This document shows, one piece after another, positions 15,241-31,507 of a stretch of DNA of 49,502 bases. This DNA comes from Thermoplasmatota archaeon (GTDB taxonomy: Archaea; Thermoplasmatota; E2; DHVEG-1): contig JAFGPP010000127.1 of the NCBI GenBank assembly GCA_016936135.1, positions 1 to 49,502 on the forward strand, given 5' to 3'. The position numbers were made by a program, and so were the translations under genes. A model generated the notes under the pieces. The model was not told the DNA's origin and made no database searches. It worked only from the letters and a program-made list of their open reading frames with translations. How positions within the stretch are numbered: the first letter of the stretch is position 1; each line of letters starts with the position of its first letter.

Positions 15241-16380
15241 ATGAAAATTTTTCATGTCGCAGATACTCATTTGGGTTATTCTGCTTACAGGCGAGTTAGT
15301 GCAGATGGAATAAATCAACGTGAGATAGATGTATATGACTCTTTTTCAAGGTTTGTAGATTATTGCTTAGAAAATAAACCTGACTTAATATTGCATGCAG
15401 GCGATCTTTTTGATTCGGTAAGACCAAACAACAGAGCAATAACATTTGCAATAGATCAAATTTTACGTATTTCGGAAAAAAAAATTCCTTTTGTGGTTAT
15501 TGCAGGAAATCACGAACATCCAAAACTAAGAGAAACAGGACATATTTTCAGTATTTTTGATCATCTTGACAATGTCTATCCGGTTTATAGTTCCAGCCAT
15601 GAATCAATACAATTAGATATCGGAAAAGAAAAAGTAACCATTCATCCTGTTCCACAGTCCTCAACAAAAGAAGATTTTGAAAATAATTTAAGACAAATAA
15701 GAAAAGACAATTCCTCGAATTACAATATTTTAATGGTTCATGGCAGTGTCATGGGAATTGAATCATTTTGTATGAATGAGTTTAATGAATTAGTAATTCC
15801 TAAAAAATATCTTGATTCTTATTTCGATTACGTTGCATTAGGTCATTTTCACAAATTTTCAAAAGTTACAAAGAAAGCATATTATTCAGGTTCAACTGAG
15901 TGTTTTAGTTTTAATGAGGCAGGCGAAAAAAAAGGTTTTATTAAAGTTGAATTAAATAAAGAAAAGATTGATCATGAATTTATTCAATTGAAAACTAGGA
16001 ATGTGGTAGATTATCCTTCTATAGAATGCTCGAATTTAACTTTAAACGAGGTAATGAGTAAAATCTACAGATCAATAGAAGATATCGATCCAGCAAATAA
16101 AGTATTTAGAATTGTACTTGACGGGGTCCCATCTCATATATTCAGAGGTCTAGACTTTAGTAGTATCAGAAAGAAGTGTTCAGATTCAATTCATTTTGAG
16201 ATTAGACCTCGAATTTCCACGGAAATGTATAAGAATAGAAATTCCGGATCAAAAATTGATGCATTATCTGAAGAATTTACTCGTTTTATAAATGAAAATG
16301 AAATTCAAGACAAAGACAAATTACTGGCCTTGGGCCTTGATTACATTAAAAAAGTTGAATCAAAAAAAGAGGAAAAATGA
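15241..16380 (+). CDS. mre11: DNA double-strand break repair nuclease Mre11
   Basis: Phosphoesterase motifs HVADTHLG, AGDLFD, IAGNHE, MVHG, LGHFH. Lies 1 nt after the upstream stop and shares an ATGA overlap with rad50. Confidence 0.85.
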   Translation: MKIFHVADTHLGYSAYRRVSADGINQREIDVYDSFSRFVDYCLENKPDLILHAGDLFDSVRPNNRAITFAIDQILRISEKKIPFVVIAGNHEHPKLRETGHIFSIFDHLDNVYPVYSSSHESIQLDIGKEKVTIHPVPQSSTKEDFENNLRQIRKDNSSNYNILMVHGSVMGIESFCMNEFNELVIPKKYLDSYFDYVALGHFHKFSKVTKKAYYSGSTECFSFNEAGEKKGFIKVELNKEKIDHEFIQLKTRNVVDYPSIECSNLTLNEVMSKIYRSIEDIDPANKVFRIVLDGVPSHIFRGLDFSSIRKKCSDSIHFEIRPRISTEMYKNRNSGSKIDALSEEFTRFINENEIQDKDKLLALGLDYIKKVESKKEEK

Positions 16381-18482
16381 TACTGAAAAATCTGCAGCTT
16401 ACAAATTATCGAAAATTCAAAAAAACACGTATAGATTTTCCAGATGGCGTTACTGGTATCGTAGGATTAAATGGAGTAGGAAAATCAACTATTTTTGAGG
16501 CAATTTCTTGGGCAATATATGGGCCTAACGCAGCGAGAACCTCAGCTGATCAAATTAGATTAAACGGCGCTGATCCGTCGGATCCCTGTAGGGTTGAGTT
16601 GGAATTTGTTTTTTCAGATGATTATTACAGAATAACTCGAGAAATGTCTGGAAAAAATCTATCTTCTGCTGCGACGGTTCTTGTCAATGGTCAATGTGCA
16701 GCATCTAGTGTAGAATCTGCCAATAAATATATTCAAAAAAAATTGGGCATGGATTATAAATCATTTTTTACCTCAATTTTTGCAAAACAAAAAGAATTGA
16801 ATGCTTTATCAACAATGAATCCCAGCGAAAGAAGACCACTCATATTAAAAATGTTAGGAATCGATATTTTAGATGAAATAATCAAGACAATTAAGGATGA
16901 TCGGAAAGAAAAATCTGCAATAGTAGAAAAATTGGGTCAGAACCTTTGGGATGAATCAGGAAAAAATAAGATTCAAATACATAAAGACGAACTCAAAGAT
17001 CTTGAAAGCAAAAATAGAATTTTTGATGATACGATAAATGAAATTAATTCTAAAATTAGATTGTTAGTCAGTAGTGTAAAAGAAGCTGAGAATAGACATC
17101 AGGAAATCAAAAATCTATTTGAAGAATTGCAAAAAGAAAAAGACAAACTTGAAGAAATTAGACAAAAATTTGAATCTAAAAAAGCACTTCAAAAAGAAAT
17201 CACAAAATTACAAAATTCAATTCAGACCAGAGAAAAAATACTAAGTGAGACAAGGAATAAATTGAAGAATTTTTCAACAATTGACTCAGATATTGATCAA
17301 ATTGAGAACCGGTTAAAAAAAATAAACGACAGCATCTTGGATTTTGTAAAAAATATTCAACAAAAAAATACAATGGTTGATACAATAAAAGATGAAATTA
17401 AAATTCTAAGGGAAAAAAATATTAAAATTACTAAAATGGGTCCAGAGGCTTCTTGTCCGACATGTGAAAGAGTCCTTGGTAATCAATATAGTAAACTTTT
17501 GGAAAAATTCGGTATTGAAAAAACTGAAAAAGAAAAACGAATAAATAATCACTTGATAGAAATTCAAAAAGATAAAGAAAATCAAGAAAAAATTGATCGT
17601 GAAAAAAAAGCAATAGAAAAGAAAAGAAAATATTTTAATGAGCAATTAAAGGAAAAAGAAAGATTACTGGTAAACATAGACAACATAACATCTGAAATTG
17701 ACAAGGAGAAAAGGGAGAAAAAAGAAAAGGAAAACTTAATTATAAAATTAGATAAAATCACTTTTGATGAGAATCAACATTCAAGCCTGAAATCTAAACT
17801 AGATGAAACCTATGCTAAATATAAGTCTTGTCAAAAGGTTGTAAATGAAAAGAAAGATAATTTAAGTTATGCAAAAATCCATTTGGAACGGGTTAAAAGC
17901 ACTAAACAAGTCCATAATCACAAAATTCAAACGCTTAAGAAAACTATCAAGGAACTAGAAGATTTTGAAAAAATAATGAAAGAGGAGAAAAAAATCGTCC
18001 AGCAGCTCAGCATGCTTAAGGATTTAATGAATTCATTTCGAACAGATTTAATTTCTAGGATCGGACCAACTTTATCTTCATATGCTTCGGAATTTTTCGA
18101 TCTTTTTACAGAGGGTAAATATAGTCAAATCGAACTAGACGAAAATTATGATATTAAGGTTTACGATAGAGGAGAACAGTTTCCAATCAGGAGATTTTCT
18201 GGTGGAGAAGAGGATTTATCAAATTTATGCCTTAGACTTGCTATTTCAGAAATTATTACAGAACGTGCAGGAGGGCTTTTTAATTTTATTATTCTTGATG
18301 AAATATTTGGTTCCCAAGATTCAATCAGGCGTCAAAATATAATGCGAGCACTGAATACTTTATCATCCAAATTTAGGCAAATATTTCTTATCACACACAT
18401 CGATGATGTTAAGAACTACATGGAAAACATTATCTACGTAAGCGAAAATGAAGATGGAACAAGCACCGTAAAAATAGAATAA
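16377..18482 (+). CDS. rad50: DNA double-strand break repair ATPase Rad50 (short, 701 aa)
   Basis: Walker A GLNGVGKST, long K/E coiled coil, zinc hook CPTC at 17454-17465, signature FSGGE, Walker B FIILDEIFG. Confidence 0.85.
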   Translation: MILKNLQLTNYRKFKKTRIDFPDGVTGIVGLNGVGKSTIFEAISWAIYGPNAARTSADQIRLNGADPSDPCRVELEFVFSDDYYRITREMSGKNLSSAATVLVNGQCAASSVESANKYIQKKLGMDYKSFFTSIFAKQKELNALSTMNPSERRPLILKMLGIDILDEIIKTIKDDRKEKSAIVEKLGQNLWDESGKNKIQIHKDELKDLESKNRIFDDTINEINSKIRLLVSSVKEAENRHQEIKNLFEELQKEKDKLEEIRQKFESKKALQKEITKLQNSIQTREKILSETRNKLKNFSTIDSDIDQIENRLKKINDSILDFVKNIQQKNTMVDTIKDEIKILREKNIKITKMGPEASCPTCERVLGNQYSKLLEKFGIEKTEKEKRINNHLIEIQKDKENQEKIDREKKAIEKKRKYFNEQLKEKERLLVNIDNITSEIDKEKREKKEKENLIIKLDKITFDENQHSSLKSKLDETYAKYKSCQKVVNEKKDNLSYAKIHLERVKSTKQVHNHKIQTLKKTIKELEDFEKIMKEEKKIVQQLSMLKDLMNSFRTDLISRIGPTLSSYASEFFDLFTEGKYSQIELDENYDIKVYDRGEQFPIRRFSGGEEDLSNLCLRLAISEIITERAGGLFNFIILDEIFGSQDSIRRQNIMRALNTLSSKFRQIFLITHIDDVKNYMENIIYVSENEDGTSTVKIE

Positions 18483-25684: not shown

Positions 25685-28591
25685 ATGGGGGATAGAAATA
25701 CAATGAGGAGGAATGATAAACTCGTCGTATTGATTGGAGTAATCGTGTTGATTTTGGCTTCAATAAGCATATACTTTTGGAGTCCTGTATTTACTTCTAC
25801 AGAGGTGGCAAACGTAGATGATATCTGTGGCGTTACTGGTAAATTTATTAGAAAACCCAATTCTATAACTGTTTTGGATGTATGTCCCTTCTATCCTCTT
25901 ATTGCTACTCCACTAGTAGTAAATTATGACGAAGACAATGTGCAATATATTAAACCTTTATATGTTAAGAATGCAACAGAAACCTCCCAAGCAATTTCAA
26001 GGGCAGAGTTTCAAATCGGATTACAGTCAGAAGAATTTATTGACGGATTGAAATCCCCTAAAGAACATTCTATTTATCTTACAAAAAAATATTGGGATAA
26101 AAGTGATGCTGCTTTGTTAATAAAATATGATAAAGAAGGATATGAGTTAGGTGTTGCTGCAACCCCTCTTGCTTCCTATCTGTCCATTCCAGTAATCGTA
26201 ACTGACGAGATGGACCAAGAAGTAAAGCATTTACTTGATGATCTTGAGGTAAAATATTCTCTTATCTGTGGAAATCTTTCAGGTTATGGAAAATCTCTTG
26301 AATTTTCAAATATTGATGAAATTGTTAATACATCAATTTCTATTGTAAGACAAAAATTTGGAAATGATCCACAGTATATCACAATTGCAAATCCCCGCGA
26401 TGCATGGCCACCAACTGTAATAGATGTTACTAATAAATTTTATGAGGGCACTTTAGAGTCGGGCAGTTTACTTCCTTCTCAGATTTTAACTGCAATCCAA
26501 CAAAAAACAGAAGTCATTAAATTTACAATTCCAGAAGATTACAAATACGCTTTGGTAAAAATAGAATTAAGAAATCTAGAGGATCCGGTAAATATTGAAA
26601 AATTTGGTGATGTTGTTACGATCCAAGGCAGTCTCATAGGATTTGCTAGAACTAGCGCAAGTCCAGCAGAACGAGACTTAAATGGCAACGTTGAATATGA
26701 CAGATTTTATTATGAAACTATATTGTATGATATGGGGGGAGAAGAATTTGACATAAAATTAAGTGCTAGTTTCCACACAGTTGATTCGGCCAAATACAAA
26801 CTTTTTGTTACAATGGAAGAATTGAGCGATCCGTATTATCCTCTAACGAAAGGCCTGTCTTCTATTGCACCGTATTTGACTGCGTATCATAAGGGAATTG
26901 CATTTGCAAAACCAGAATTTGCATTTGCCGCAGATGATGATGTATTATTGGATGGGGAAAAATTACCTGGAAATACACAAGTTATGAAAAATCCAATTCT
27001 CATACCAGTGGTTAACAGACATGTATATAACAATATTCACAAACCGTTCAATGAATTGCTTGCAAAAATTAGAGGAATAGATATATCCAATGAAAAGGGC
27101 ATCGAAAGCCTAACAAAGGATTGTAAAATAGATCCTTTTTATGTGGCGCTTGTGGGGGATACTACGATGGTGCCGCAGTACTACTATAGAAGTCCCCATA
27201 ATGATCCCTTTACCAGTCAGGACAAAATGTATGGAACTGGATGTCCTAGTGATTTCATTTATGGAAATATTGATCCTGAGACATACTTTATGCAACCATA
27301 TGTTGGTAAGAAAGATGTTGAAAATGATAAATATTCAAAATATCCTGAAGTAGAAAATATTGTAGGTAGAATCACCGGATGGGATATTCAGGATGCAAGT
27401 GCCTTAATTGTCAGAACCATTTTTTATAATGATGTAATTGATAAATTGGGAGAATGGAAAAATAATGCAGTAGTTATGTCAGGGGCAGGTTTAGAATTCC
27501 AGAAATTACCGTTTTTCAACACAGTTTATAACCTTCTCGATAAACATGAACCAATGAAATTCCCTACGGGGGAGCAACATTTCCTAAATATACGTACATC
27601 AAAAAATATACAGGAAGGGGATTTTAACGTTGAGATCGCTGAACGTGGGAAAGCTCAAAGAGTGGGTTATACAGACGAGGCTTTATGGGAAATTAAACAA
27701 GATGGTTTACTTAATATGCTTTTCTTCCCACGTTGGTTGGTAAAACTTGCTCAGGGATTTGAAAGCGTTAATTCACTTTTCAGCCCGAATTGGTGGAGGG
27801 AAGCATTGAGTGATCAATCTGGAGTTAGGGGAGGCGAATTACAGGAAAGCAGTAATTTGATTCTGACTAATTCACACGGAATATGGTTTGGATTTGAACA
27901 TGGAGATTCAATGATGTATCTTCTTGGCGGTCCACCGATTCTGTATCAGCTCATCGGTAGATTTTTCCCAGTTATAGGGAGATTTTCTACTCCACTAGAT
28001 AGTATTGGCAGTTATGACGTCCGCTCGGTTTCAGACATGGAGCTTGGGCCATCCGTAATGTTTGTGGAGGGATGTGGATGTGGAAAAATTGACAGTGTTC
28101 ATCCTGCAAATACAATTGCAAATGCGTATCTGCATTCTGGGGTAAATGCCTACATTTCCCCAACAACATATTCAGCTATTGGCGGATATCTAGAACCTCG
28201 TCCAAAGTGGCCATTGCTTGATGACGGAGTGGGTTTTGGGATCCTTGGATACTTAAATGCGGCAATTAACGCAAGAAAAGGAGTATATCCAGACGTACAT
28301 TTCTGTGGAGTGATATTTGAGGATTCATATCAGCAATTGATTAATGGAGATGTTGATGTTGGCACAGCTCTTAGAAATGCAAAAAATAATTTTCTACCAG
28401 AGCAGGTTAGTAAAAAATACTTATGGACCCCTCCATTGGGAGAACAACTAGATTCAGTTCCAACTTATACACTTACCACTGGTCAGAGAGGAGATGAGGT
28501 AATAATTGAGAAGTATTGTACAATTTATCAGTTGAATTTACTAGGAGATCCAGCCTTTAATCCATATGAGCCATGTAATGAGGGCAGCTAA
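25685..28591 (+). CDS. Membrane-anchored/secreted gingipain-like (peptidase C25, clan CD) cysteine peptidase, paralog 1
   Basis: N-terminal TM/signal (LVVLIGVIVLILASISIYFW). C25-like N-subdomain: YVALVGDTTMVPQYYY, PSDFIYGNID, VGRITGWDIQDASALIVRTIFY. Candidate catalytic His-Gly is LILTNSHG (His codon 27875-27877) and candidate Cys is MFVEGCGCG (Cys codon 28073-28075). Both are conserved in paralog 2. Confidence 0.6.
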   Translation: MGDRNTMRRNDKLVVLIGVIVLILASISIYFWSPVFTSTEVANVDDICGVTGKFIRKPNSITVLDVCPFYPLIATPLVVNYDEDNVQYIKPLYVKNATETSQAISRAEFQIGLQSEEFIDGLKSPKEHSIYLTKKYWDKSDAALLIKYDKEGYELGVAATPLASYLSIPVIVTDEMDQEVKHLLDDLEVKYSLICGNLSGYGKSLEFSNIDEIVNTSISIVRQKFGNDPQYITIANPRDAWPPTVIDVTNKFYEGTLESGSLLPSQILTAIQQKTEVIKFTIPEDYKYALVKIELRNLEDPVNIEKFGDVVTIQGSLIGFARTSASPAERDLNGNVEYDRFYYETILYDMGGEEFDIKLSASFHTVDSAKYKLFVTMEELSDPYYPLTKGLSSIAPYLTAYHKGIAFAKPEFAFAADDDVLLDGEKLPGNTQVMKNPILIPVVNRHVYNNIHKPFNELLAKIRGIDISNEKGIESLTKDCKIDPFYVALVGDTTMVPQYYYRSPHNDPFTSQDKMYGTGCPSDFIYGNIDPETYFMQPYVGKKDVENDKYSKYPEVENIVGRITGWDIQDASALIVRTIFYNDVIDKLGEWKNNAVVMSGAGLEFQKLPFFNTVYNLLDKHEPMKFPTGEQHFLNIRTSKNIQEGDFNVEIAERGKAQRVGYTDEALWEIKQDGLLNMLFFPRWLVKLAQGFESVNSLFSPNWWREALSDQSGVRGGELQESSNLILTNSHGIWFGFEHGDSMMYLLGGPPILYQLIGRFFPVIGRFSTPLDSIGSYDVRSVSDMELGPSVMFVEGCGCGKIDSVHPANTIANAYLHSGVNAYISPTTYSAIGGYLEPRPKWPLLDDGVGFGILGYLNAAINARKGVYPDVHFCGVIFEDSYQQLINGDVDVGTALRNAKNNFLPEQVSKKYLWTPPLGEQLDSVPTYTLTTGQRGDEVIIEKYCTIYQLNLLGDPAFNPYEPCNEGS
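26850..26941 (+). repeat. Near-identical nucleotide block shared with 29859-29950 (copy A)
   Basis: 51 nt (26850-26900) are identical to 29859-29909. The next 41 nt carry 3 mismatches. The block encodes GLSSIAPYLTAYHKGIAFAKPEFAFAADDD. Confidence 0.85.
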
Positions 28592-28651
28592 AACTATTTT
28601 TATTCTTAATTTTAAATTATTTTTCAATTTTGAATAACGTTTAAATAATAT

Positions 28652-31507
28652 TTGTTTAATAATAATTATCAGGTGATTCATTTGCATAAAAAAATAAGAC
28701 AACCAGCGACGATTCTTTTTGGAATGTTTATTATTTTCATGTCATTTGGTGCAATAACAGTTTTACCTCAGAAATCAAATGGCGAAGTTAAAGACAACTC
28801 ATTTGGGTATGTTAATTACGATATTAAATCAAATTTTTCACCAGATTTGTTATCCGCAATAACTGTTTCTGATAAAAATCCGTTTTATGCCCTAATTGCA
28901 ACTCCTCTGGCAGTCAGATATGATAATGAAGGAAACCAGTTTATTGCACCGCTGTATGTAAAAAATTTGACCAATCCTTCAAAAGCTATAATTAGAGCTG
29001 AACAACAAGTAGGTCTCTATACTGATTTTACAATTGGTGATACTCTCCCACCAAAGGACATCTCTTTGTTTGTTGCTGATATGTTTTGGGACGATACCAA
29101 TACTGCTCTGGTTATTAAGGACGACGAATCTGGCTATAATCTTGGTGTTGTCGCCACGCCAATTGCTTCATATTTGGGGATTCCTGTTATTGTAACGGAT
29201 GTTATCGATCATCATGTTAAATCAGTTTTAGACGCTCTTGGTGTAGTAGGTCTATATATTTGTGGCGATCTTCATACTTCATCTTATTGGGTTAAGGAAT
29301 TTGAAAGCACCGAAGAAATTATTGAAGAGTGTATGACTATAATACATCACATATTTGGCGATTCTATCCAATATATTACGATTGCAAACCCTTTAGATGT
29401 GAATCAACCAAAAGTTCTTGACAAAATCATATATGAGTTTTCTGGAAACCTTGGCTCAATGATGTTTCTTCCTACACAAACTATTGGTATGTTGCTTAAT
29501 GGCCAGATGAAAACCCATAGATTCGATATACCTTCAGATTACAAATACGCCAAACTAATTCTTGATCTTGAAAATAAAAATCCTGAGAATGCTGAGAGAT
29601 TGGGGGATAAGGTTTCGGTTATTGTGAGTAGTCCAGATGGCCCTAGATATTTTTTTGTCTCAACTGATGGAGGATTACCAGTTCGCGATATGAACGGTGA
29701 CATCATTGAAGATAAAATTCACTATGAAATAACCTTGTACAATAAACCTGGAAATTATGGTATTCAAGTACTTGGACAGTGGGGTGCACAAAAGGTAGGT
29801 TCCTATGAGGCAATTGTTACAATAGAAAAAATTGAATCGCCTGTTGTTCCTTTGATGGAAGGCCTGTCTTCTATTGCACCGTATTTGACTGCGTATCATA
29901 AGGGAATTGTATTTGCAAAACCGGAATTTGCATTTGCTGCAGATGATGATATTCTTAACAATGGTGAGCCATGTCCTGGCGTAACTCAACCTGGATCAAA
30001 TCCCTTGCTCGTAGAACCGTCCAATGCACATACTATGCAGATTCATCAGGAACTCAACAATCTACTTGCTGAAATGGCCGAAATTTCCACCTCAAATTTG
30101 CAAGGACTAAGGAATTATTACTATGATAATCCCGTATATATTGCCATAGCTGCTGATCCGACCATGGTTCCCATGTATTTTTATTATAACCCCGACGGAA
30201 GACTTGATGCAAAAGCTTACATGATGGGTTTTGCACTTCCAAGTGATTTTATGTGGGGGGATATTGATCCAAAGCCGGGTGATCTTGAAAATAATTCATT
30301 TAGTACGTGGCCCAGTATGGAAAATATTGTGGGAAGAGTAACCGGACGTGATGTACAGGATTGCAGTGCCCTTATTGCAAGAACTATCTTTTATGAAAAT
30401 ATTATTGAAAAAATGGATGACTGGAAAGACACTGCCCTTGTTCAAACTGGTTGCGGTCTTGAATTTCAAAACCTGCCAATTATAACAAAGTTAAGTCAAA
30501 TGTTGTTTAGTGGTAGAGGGGAACCTACTAAATTTCCGACTGGAGAAAGTACCTTTATTAATTTACGTTTAAAGGAAAAAATGGAGGGAGGCTACACCAA
30601 TGTTAAAAATACGTTTTTACTTGAATCCCAAAGAGAAGGTTTTACTGAAGATGAATTGAAGGACATAAAAAATGCAGGAATTCTAAATAGATTGCTATTC
30701 CCAAAGAAATTTATCGAGTTATTAATGTCTGATGAGAAAGTTACAGGTGGGCAATCACACCTTGACAGTAGCTTGATTTTCACCTTTGCTCACGGCTCAT
30801 TTAACCTTTTTGAACATGGTGACATATTTGTTGATTCGCGAGGTTTTCCTTTTGTTACTGCGATTTCACGTATATATCCACAGATTAGAAGCGGATTATC
30901 AAGCAAAGGATCTTACAGTATTCGTTCTATTGAAAATATGAATTACGGACCATCGGCGGTATTTGTAGAAAGTTGCATAACAGGTAGAACAGATGGAATT
31001 CCTGGTGAGAATGTATTGTCTCAGACATTTATACATGCAGGGGTAAATGCCTATATTGGTGCTACAAGAGTAACTGCGGACCCTGGCTACCTTGAGCCAC
31101 GTCCTTTACCTGGAGGGGTCGGCATTGGGATACTAGGATTAATGAAAGCAATGCTTGATTTAAAATTATATTCAAAATATCCCGATCTTCATTTTGGGGC
31201 GGTAATCGCAGAAGATTTTATCAACGAATTGATCGAAAATGATGCAACAACTGGTCTTGCGCTGAGAAATGCTAAAAATGTATATCTTGAAAAGGATGCT
31301 AATTCCACTTTTCTATGGACACCTCCTCTATCCCTCTCGACAGGCAACAGCATTATTGATCAACTGTGCTTATCTTCCTTAAACCTAGAACAATATAACG
31401 GGAATGTTAGAACCAAAGTTTTAGATAAAAAATATGTTGCACTGCACGAATTCACTCTTTATGGGGATCCAGCTTTCAATCCATATCAGTCGGTAAACGA
31501 AGGCTGA
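28652..31507 (+). CDS. Membrane-anchored/secreted gingipain-like (peptidase C25, clan CD) cysteine peptidase, paralog 2
   Basis: Collinear with paralog 1, with roughly half the residues identical by eye. Motifs: YIAIAADPTMVPMYFYY, PSDFMWGDID, VGRVTGRDVQDCSALIARTIFY, FTFAHG, FVESCITG, C-terminal GDPAFNPY. Start uncertain: TTG 28652, or TTG 28682 preceded by AGGTGA. Confidence 0.6.
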   Translation: MFNNNYQVIHLHKKIRQPATILFGMFIIFMSFGAITVLPQKSNGEVKDNSFGYVNYDIKSNFSPDLLSAITVSDKNPFYALIATPLAVRYDNEGNQFIAPLYVKNLTNPSKAIIRAEQQVGLYTDFTIGDTLPPKDISLFVADMFWDDTNTALVIKDDESGYNLGVVATPIASYLGIPVIVTDVIDHHVKSVLDALGVVGLYICGDLHTSSYWVKEFESTEEIIEECMTIIHHIFGDSIQYITIANPLDVNQPKVLDKIIYEFSGNLGSMMFLPTQTIGMLLNGQMKTHRFDIPSDYKYAKLILDLENKNPENAERLGDKVSVIVSSPDGPRYFFVSTDGGLPVRDMNGDIIEDKIHYEITLYNKPGNYGIQVLGQWGAQKVGSYEAIVTIEKIESPVVPLMEGLSSIAPYLTAYHKGIVFAKPEFAFAADDDILNNGEPCPGVTQPGSNPLLVEPSNAHTMQIHQELNNLLAEMAEISTSNLQGLRNYYYDNPVYIAIAADPTMVPMYFYYNPDGRLDAKAYMMGFALPSDFMWGDIDPKPGDLENNSFSTWPSMENIVGRVTGRDVQDCSALIARTIFYENIIEKMDDWKDTALVQTGCGLEFQNLPIITKLSQMLFSGRGEPTKFPTGESTFINLRLKEKMEGGYTNVKNTFLLESQREGFTEDELKDIKNAGILNRLLFPKKFIELLMSDEKVTGGQSHLDSSLIFTFAHGSFNLFEHGDIFVDSRGFPFVTAISRIYPQIRSGLSSKGSYSIRSIENMNYGPSAVFVESCITGRTDGIPGENVLSQTFIHAGVNAYIGATRVTADPGYLEPRPLPGGVGIGILGLMKAMLDLKLYSKYPDLHFGAVIAEDFINELIENDATTGLALRNAKNVYLEKDANSTFLWTPPLSLSTGNSIIDQLCLSSLNLEQYNGNVRTKVLDKKYVALHEFTLYGDPAFNPYQSVNEG
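29859..29950 (+). repeat. Near-identical nucleotide block shared with 26850-26941 (copy B)
   Basis: Same block in paralog 2, at an offset of 3009 nt. Confidence 0.85.

Follow-up and report, generated by a model that had tools for sequence, protein, structure and literature searches.

The window analysed here is the whole 49,502-nt stretch of contig JAFGPP010000127.1 from a Thermoplasmatota archaeon (assembly GCA_016936135.1); the source genome, referred to below as G000, is a metagenome-assembled genome (MAG) of 153 contigs and 1.71 Mb that is 86% complete. Two open reading frames (ORFs) stand in tandem on its forward strand: gene A (25685..28591, 968 aa), the upstream member, which encodes a Peptidase_C25-like protein with a hydrophobic N-terminal stretch, and its paralogue, gene B (28652..31507, 951 aa), whose start codon is uncertain, the earliest possible one being a TTG at 28652. 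In a codon alignment the two genes share 43.7% amino-acid and 53.9% nucleotide identity over 918 aligned codons, with the protein figure moving between about 42 and 44% according to the alignment used. Embedded in this diverged pair is a short island of identical DNA, which we interpret with considerable confidence, on the basis of comparisons among related genomes, as the product of recurrent and very short interlocus (ectopic) gene conversion between anciently duplicated tandem paralogues.

The core of the island occupies 26850..26900 on the forward strand in gene A and 29859..29909 on the same strand in gene B, and its two copies match exactly over 51 nt at an offset of 3009, as the sequence-only reading of the window had stated and as direct base-for-base comparison bears out. 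It encodes (K)GLSSIAPYLTAYHKGI, and both copies are in frame and at homologous positions of their ORFs. Beyond the core, near-identity extends to 26941 in A and 29950 in B through a 41-nt 3' sub-block (26901..26941 and 29910..29950, both forward), which encodes (A/V)FAKPEFAFAADDD and contains the only three mismatches of the block, also correctly counted in that reading: a C/T difference at 26901 that exchanges Ala and Val, and two synonymous differences, A/G at 26914 and C/T at 26929. The tract is contiguous and has discrete ends with diverged sequence on either side, the 60-nt flanks of the block differing between A and B at 29 to 31 sites. No third copy of the block was found in either orientation in the G000 genome (1.71 Mb, 86% complete). 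An antisense ORF of 104 aa (29675-29989, minus strand) overlaps the island copy in gene B only; it is probably spurious as a gene, since it has no counterpart opposite gene A.

The island is real and far exceeds what chance would produce. After it, the longest exact runs shared by the two genes measure 15, 14 and 14 nt, in line with the figure of about 14 nt given earlier, and synonymous sites elsewhere have diverged, with only 157 of 366 same-amino-acid codons identical outside the block (degenerate amino acids). Within the block 27 of 29 such codons are identical (Fisher p = 5e-8). The amino-acid-specific rates outside the block predict 12.2, and a value of 27 did not occur in any of 200,000 simulations. 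The core alone has all 16 of its comparable codons identical where 6.6 would be expected (P = 2e-6). When codon pairs were permuted among columns that share an amino-acid pair, a procedure that does not alter the protein alignment, exact runs reached at most 38 nt in 5000 shuffles compared to the observed 51 nt. Homogenisation has thus reached the synonymous sites and goes beyond the amino acids alone.

Four species of the genus carry the A-B tandem. Besides G000 these are G001, found by genome search on a 172-kb SPAdes contig (A 91% protein-identical), M3 (A 88% protein-identical) and M4 (A 85% protein-identical), the last on an 82-kb JGI contig with the tandem at L099:4501-10330. The M3 locus was obtained from two contigs, L064 and L087, which overlap by 1338 nt without mismatch, and again from the single contigs L100, L101 and L102 of three further assemblies, giving four independent assemblies. 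The synteny prefoldin-A-B-gyrA is kept in G001, M3 and M4. More distant lineages with a tandem are represented by G005/L069, M5, M6, G011 and L071. A maximum-likelihood (ML) tree of the genes outside the block splits A and B into two clades with 100% support, each with the same species order, (G000,G001), M3, M4, G005, which makes the duplication far older than the genus itself. This indicates that the similarity of A to B does not stem from independent recent duplications and that the duplication predates the species split.

The block behaves differently from the rest of the genes. Counting differences between A and B within each genome, first over 49 positions of the core and then over 41 positions of the 3' part, gives 0 and 3 for G000, 2-3 and 1 for G001, and 3 and 0 for M4, compared to 14 and 2 for M3 and 16 and 4 for G005. 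Between G000 and G001 the orthologous cores differ at 5 to 6 positions, which is above the within-genome values of both, and each of G000, G001 and M4 has its own block sequence common to its two paralogues. In window coordinates of gene A, the longest exact A/B run is 51 nt in G000 (26850-26900), 69 nt in G001 (26858-26926), 78 nt in M4 (26866-26943) and 23 nt in M3 (26918-26940). Identical codons in the block number 28 of 30 in G001, against 151 of 357 outside it, and 27 of 30 in M4. In M3 the core has only 4 of 15 identical codons where 5.7 would be expected (P = 0.9), no excess and the level expected at saturation, and DNA identity in this unconverted pair is 71% in the core and 95% in the 3' part. 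The 3' sub-block carries an excess of identical codons in G000 (11/13), G001 (13/14) and M3 (11/13), with P between 0.0006 and 0.002 (0.0016 for M3).

Site patterns localise the signal. Across the alignment of the G000 and G001 genes, 952 sites support orthology and only six unite A and B of the same genome. Four of the latter (26863, 26869, 26872 and 26884) are clustered within 22 nt of the island. The ratio of genome-pattern to orthology-pattern sites in this pair is 4:1 in the block and 2:951 outside it (p = 2e-9), and the corresponding values are 14:1 and 17:755 for G000 with M4 (p = 1e-20), 12:1 and 18:744 for G001 with M4 (p = 1e-17), and 7:0 and 19:735 for M3 with M4 (p = 2e-11). The largest zone that could have been homogenised, delimited as the stretch without orthology-supporting sites in the four G000 and G001 sequences, spans 100 nt on the forward strand of gene A (26844..26943; 29853-29952 in gene B, also forward) and is flanked by orthology-pattern sites at 26843 and 26944. 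Phylogenetic analysis is in agreement. In a tree built from the 93-nt block, A and B of the same genome are placed together for G000, G001, M4 and G005. The orthology topology of the rest of the gene is rejected by the block data (delta lnL 38.9, AU p = 2e-7), and the rest-of-gene data in turn reject the block topology. Both M4 paralogues have the same two replacements, Y to F and V to I (TAYHKGIV to TAFHKGII), and conversion therefore passes amino-acid changes, besides silent ones, between the two proteins.

Two M3 strains allow a finer comparison. L064 and L065 are 97% identical over 5.5 kb, and their A genes differ at four positions of the core and two of the 3' sub-block. At one of these positions L064, unlike L065, matches the M3 B gene (GCC), which could be a polymorphic micro-conversion.

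The earlier reading had offered a recent short-tract gene conversion as one explanation of the island. Conversion is well supported by the comparisons above, but a single recent event is not, as the phenomenon recurs in at least three of the four species and an older 3' layer is common to all four. The core requires at least three separate events, of which one belongs to the M4 lineage and two or more to the G000/G001 lineages, because M4, as outgroup to the other three species, has its own homogenised core sequence, and G000 and G001 differ at four shared core sites and in their tract ends. In M3 the core has diverged (14/49) but the 3' parts are near-alike, and therefore the core tracts of the other species are lineage-specific. 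By this comparison 26850-26900 is the youngest conversion tract in G000, and the 41 nt on its 3' side constitute an older or continually renewed tract, present as a layer in all four species, and are the likely homology anchor. We considered whether one conversion in the ancestor of the genus, followed by point mutation only and without recurrence, could account for the same data. The 3' sub-block agrees with such a history in that its eight sequences from the genus are almost alike, with 0-3 differences within genomes compared to 1-5 between species. The core does not, as the four clustered sites have A equal to B within G000 and within G001 but differ between the two genomes, 12-14 genome-grouping sites (shared replacements included) are found in comparisons with M4, and the left tract ends differ by species (26850, 26858 and 26866). 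Furthermore, G000 has no differences over 51 nt even though its divergence from G001 has altered about 20% of codons, an outcome with an expectation of 0.8^16 = 0.03. A single old event is thus contradicted for the core and possible for the 3' sub-block, and as an account of the whole island we consider it highly improbable.

The block coincides with a conserved protein motif, which raises the question of whether selection at the protein or codon level could suffice. Conservation in the family peaks in two 31-residue windows, the motif GLSSIAPYLTAYHKGI(A/V)FAKPEFAFAADDD with a mean majority fraction of 0.836 and aa 551-581 with 0.837. The motif also contains the two longest stretches of residues identical in A and B (16 and 13 aa, followed by one of 8). 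Conserved sites often carry preferred codons, and translational selection for accuracy, speed or pausing might have led both genes to the same codon choice without recombination. However, related species of the same GC3 (approximately 0.27) would be expected to prefer the same codons, yet each of G000, G001 and M4 has its own fixed set of synonymous codons, and in M3 the A and B genes use different codons at 11 of 15 core positions. In the other window of equal conservation, aa 551-581 (ENIVGRITGWDIQDASALIVRTIFY; 27335-27427 in A, 30302-30394 in B), there is only a slight excess of identical codons (11/14) that is not significant after correction, and zero genome-pattern sites occur, giving no indication of a second tract there. 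In seven genomes of the same family with non-adjacent paralogues, the motif is present with no excess of identical codons (P = 0.055-0.73) and the longest exact runs lie elsewhere. The statement in the sequence-only reading that protein-level selection does not explain the identical third positions is upheld by these seven genomes, and convergent codon choice is in our judgement an extremely unlikely explanation.

A functional element at the nucleotide level, embedded in A and B alike, had also been proposed and would fix third positions irrespective of the protein. It might be an RNA structure, the target of an antisense or small RNA (sRNA), or an internal regulatory site. Such an element would put the island at matching positions of the two paralogues in several species, as observed, and predicted folds contain a short hairpin (UUGCAAA...UUUGCA). 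Comparison of orthologous pairs, recommended in the same reading, points the other way. In none of 12 orthologue pairs does the block, with a codon identity of 0.52-0.80, exceed the gene average of 0.65-0.80; for example, 24 of 30 block codons and 671 of 837 codons outside are identical between the A genes of G000 and G001, and 15 of 28 and 515 of 772, respectively, between those of G000 and M4. This normal synonymous divergence between species rules out a conserved nucleotide element and favours lineage-specific conversion, and it indicates that the synonymous sites of the block are free to change between species, with both copies changing together. Consistent with this, each species has its own version of the block and the M3 core is fully diverged, and the seven genomes with non-adjacent paralogues have no synonymous conservation at the motif. 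Folding the block as RNA, another of the suggested checks, gave structures no better than dinucleotide shuffles for both copies and both strands (z = +0.1 to +1.7). No Rfam match was found in A or B, the Rfam matches of the window being two tRNAs elsewhere, and there is no third copy in either orientation in the 86% complete genome that could encode a complementary RNA. We therefore hold a functional element to be very improbable.

As G000 is a MAG of 153 contigs and the exact protein A has no record in other assemblies, an artefact of assembly, polishing or binning, including the collapse of two loci, also had to be weighed, as the earlier reading had recognised. Genes A and B are complete, collinear with their orthologues and located on one 49.5-kb contig stretch, and a repeat-induced misjoin would delete or fuse genes rather than copy 51 nt. 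The independently assembled sister species G001 and M4 have such islands too, each differing in sequence and in tract ends, and the M3 pattern is reproduced in four assemblies. An artefact is thus very unlikely, to the point of being scarcely credible as the source of the island.

Recurrent conversion could be explained as follows. Purifying selection on the protein motif would hold DNA divergence between A and B low at this point, with synonymous sites alone varying, so that GLSSIAPYLTAYHKGI(V)FAKPEFAFAADDD, the sole place with long runs of identical residues, would be where the recombination machinery can pair the two genes, which share a strand at a distance of 3 kb. If one copy suffers a break or gap, it may then be repaired from the other, with the heteroduplex or synthesis tract blocked by flanks of approximately 50% identity and only 50-100 nt copied as a result. 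Every event would restore perfect identity and so facilitate the next, making the island self-perpetuating, and A and B would evolve in concert at this position, amino-acid replacements included. A likely pathway is RadA-type strand exchange using the 41-nt 3' sub-block as anchor, and G000 has genes for a RadA/RadB-type protein, for Hjc and for a MutS-domain protein; no NucS was detected in this 86% complete genome. The right tract end is common to the species, near 26943, which together with the variable left ends would fit an anchor in the 3' sub-block, but the abrupt loss of protein conservation after the DDD residues explains the common end equally well. GC-biased conversion was not indicated, as GC3 in the block (0.13-0.32) is not above that of the gene (0.24-0.29).

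More tentatively, the island may be a self-perpetuating micro-hotspot in which the 41-nt anchor has been near-identical throughout the history of the genus and conversion has spread 5'-wards from it over variable distances. Alternatively or additionally, selection may have favoured a motif matched in both proteins, for example through a shared interface or partner, with the joint Y-to-F and V-to-I replacements in M4 as a hint. We regard this extension as rather unlikely.

Genes for a Mre11-like metallophosphoesterase and a Rad50-like ATPase (Pfam Metallophos; AAA_23/SMC_N) lie adjacent to each other at 15241-18482 of the window, approximately 8 kb upstream of A and B.

Several points weigh against recurrent conversion, or limit its reach. 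It is deduced from sequence comparison rather than seen as recombination events, and the identity of the island in G000 itself rests on a single assembly. The cores of G000 and G001 lie at distances of 9-12 from the A gene of M3 and 10-12 from its B gene, which are too alike to tell donor from recipient. Branch support in the 93-nt block tree is modest (32-85%). The pairs in the seven genomes used as controls represent a different combination of paralogues, and so control for the motif and not strictly for adjacency. The distant tandem pairs (G005, M5, M6, G011 and L071) give a weak signal or none; the 3' sub-block frequently contains the longest exact run of these pairs (23, 26 and 18 nt), but with P of only 0.03-0.4, and on the present comparisons recurrence is demonstrated within one genus only.

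All defining features of interlocus gene conversion that can be examined in sequence are found at this locus, and the process itself is real and well known, being in this instance unusually short and recurrent. Its particulars are a tract of 50-100 nt, host genes whose proteins are 43% identical, at least three events in four species, and an occurrence in uncultivated Thermoplasmata. In archaea, Archibald and Roger reportedly described in 2002 conversion between diverged paralogues of chaperonin (thermosome) subunits that was centred on the best-conserved portion of the protein; that case is said to produce a conflicting phylogenetic signal along the gene, in another family and over longer segments than in A and B. 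A close parallel is the tandem mtrA-1/mtrA-2 pair of methanogenic archaea, in which concerted evolution is confined to the MtrA domain (Wang et al., 2015, PMC4632066). Both cases involve archaeal tandem paralogues of old duplication that are partially homogenised by repeated conversion with the remainder diverged, and both are detected by within-genome similarity against conserved synteny. They differ in scale, as a whole domain is affected in mtrA across orders and over very long times, whereas in A and B it is 50-100 nt in 54%-identical genes within one genus. Long-lasting recurrent concerted evolution of prokaryotic paralogues is also known, for example, for tufA/tufB and amoA/B (Wang and Chen, 2018, PMC6053082), and again paralogues are closer within a genome than to their syntenic orthologues, synonymous and non-synonymous sites are homogenised alike, and the process recurs across lineages. 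In those families whole or near-whole genes are nearly identical, whereas A and B diverged anciently and share a micro-tract at a conserved motif only. Very short conversion tracts are known from bacterial antigenic variation and from gene-family evolution (PMC11276520). In antigenic variation, silent donor cassettes are used to make diversity at an expression site; in A and B diversity is removed at a conserved motif, and there is no sign of a programmed system at this locus.

Both paralogues belong to a Peptidase_C25-like family. The Pfam model PF01364 (Peptidase_C25) matches gene A with 62.4 bits (E = 5.7e-17) and gene B with 40.7 bits (E = 2.3e-10), above a cut-off of 23. Two residues, His731 (27875-27877 in gene A, forward strand) and Cys797 (28073-28075, forward strand), are invariant in 24 aligned homologues, which is the pattern expected of the catalytic dyad of clan CD (gingipain-like) peptidases. 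Both are retained in A and in B, and therefore both proteins are probably cysteine peptidases, predicted to be active. Sequence and profile searches returned no relative of the C25-like family in the PDB, no NCBIfam model matched, and an exact look-up of protein A gave no record in other assemblies. The gene order in the window is an undecaprenyl-diphosphate-synthase-like gene, a small ORF, prefoldin beta, A and B, followed by convergent gyrA and gyrB, and the orthologues are set in a neighbourhood of like order.

The C25-like family, represented in the window by 25685-31507 and elsewhere by loci L012 and L041-L053, comprises at least three clades that can be told apart by the residues immediately following the block: LPGNTQV in the A type, CPGVTQPG in the B type, and PGFYMPR or PGYYSVR in a third. 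Many genomes of the family have two C25-like types on separate contigs, and the A-B tandem is limited to some lineages. A distant third paralogue in G000 (G000:C65:9449-11035, a 769-aa open frame approximately 31% identical to residues 56-523 of A) lacks the island. In one M5 assembly two short genes of 73 and 131 aa (L105:3404-4014) are annotated downstream of A, where B would stand, and the sister assembly L104 has an intact B of 946 aa; the split may reflect a frameshifted gene or an assembly error.

In scope the finding opens no new biological question, but it has practical consequences. For annotation, an identical island in diverged paralogues is a recombination footprint and should not be labelled a hidden regulatory element. 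For phylogenetics, the motif region should be masked when orthology is inferred in the C25-like family, because the motif groups sequences by genome. The locus also provides a clean natural example in which ectopic conversion in an uncultivated Thermoplasmata lineage acts on approximately 40-50 nt of near-identity in genes otherwise about 54% identical, with conversion tracts of only 50-80 nt and at least three recurrences within one genus. Figures of this sort for homology and tract length otherwise come mostly from experiments in a few model archaea. If the micro-hotspot interpretation were true, the island would constitute a natural read-out of the minimal homology and tract length of recombination in uncultivated Thermoplasmata.

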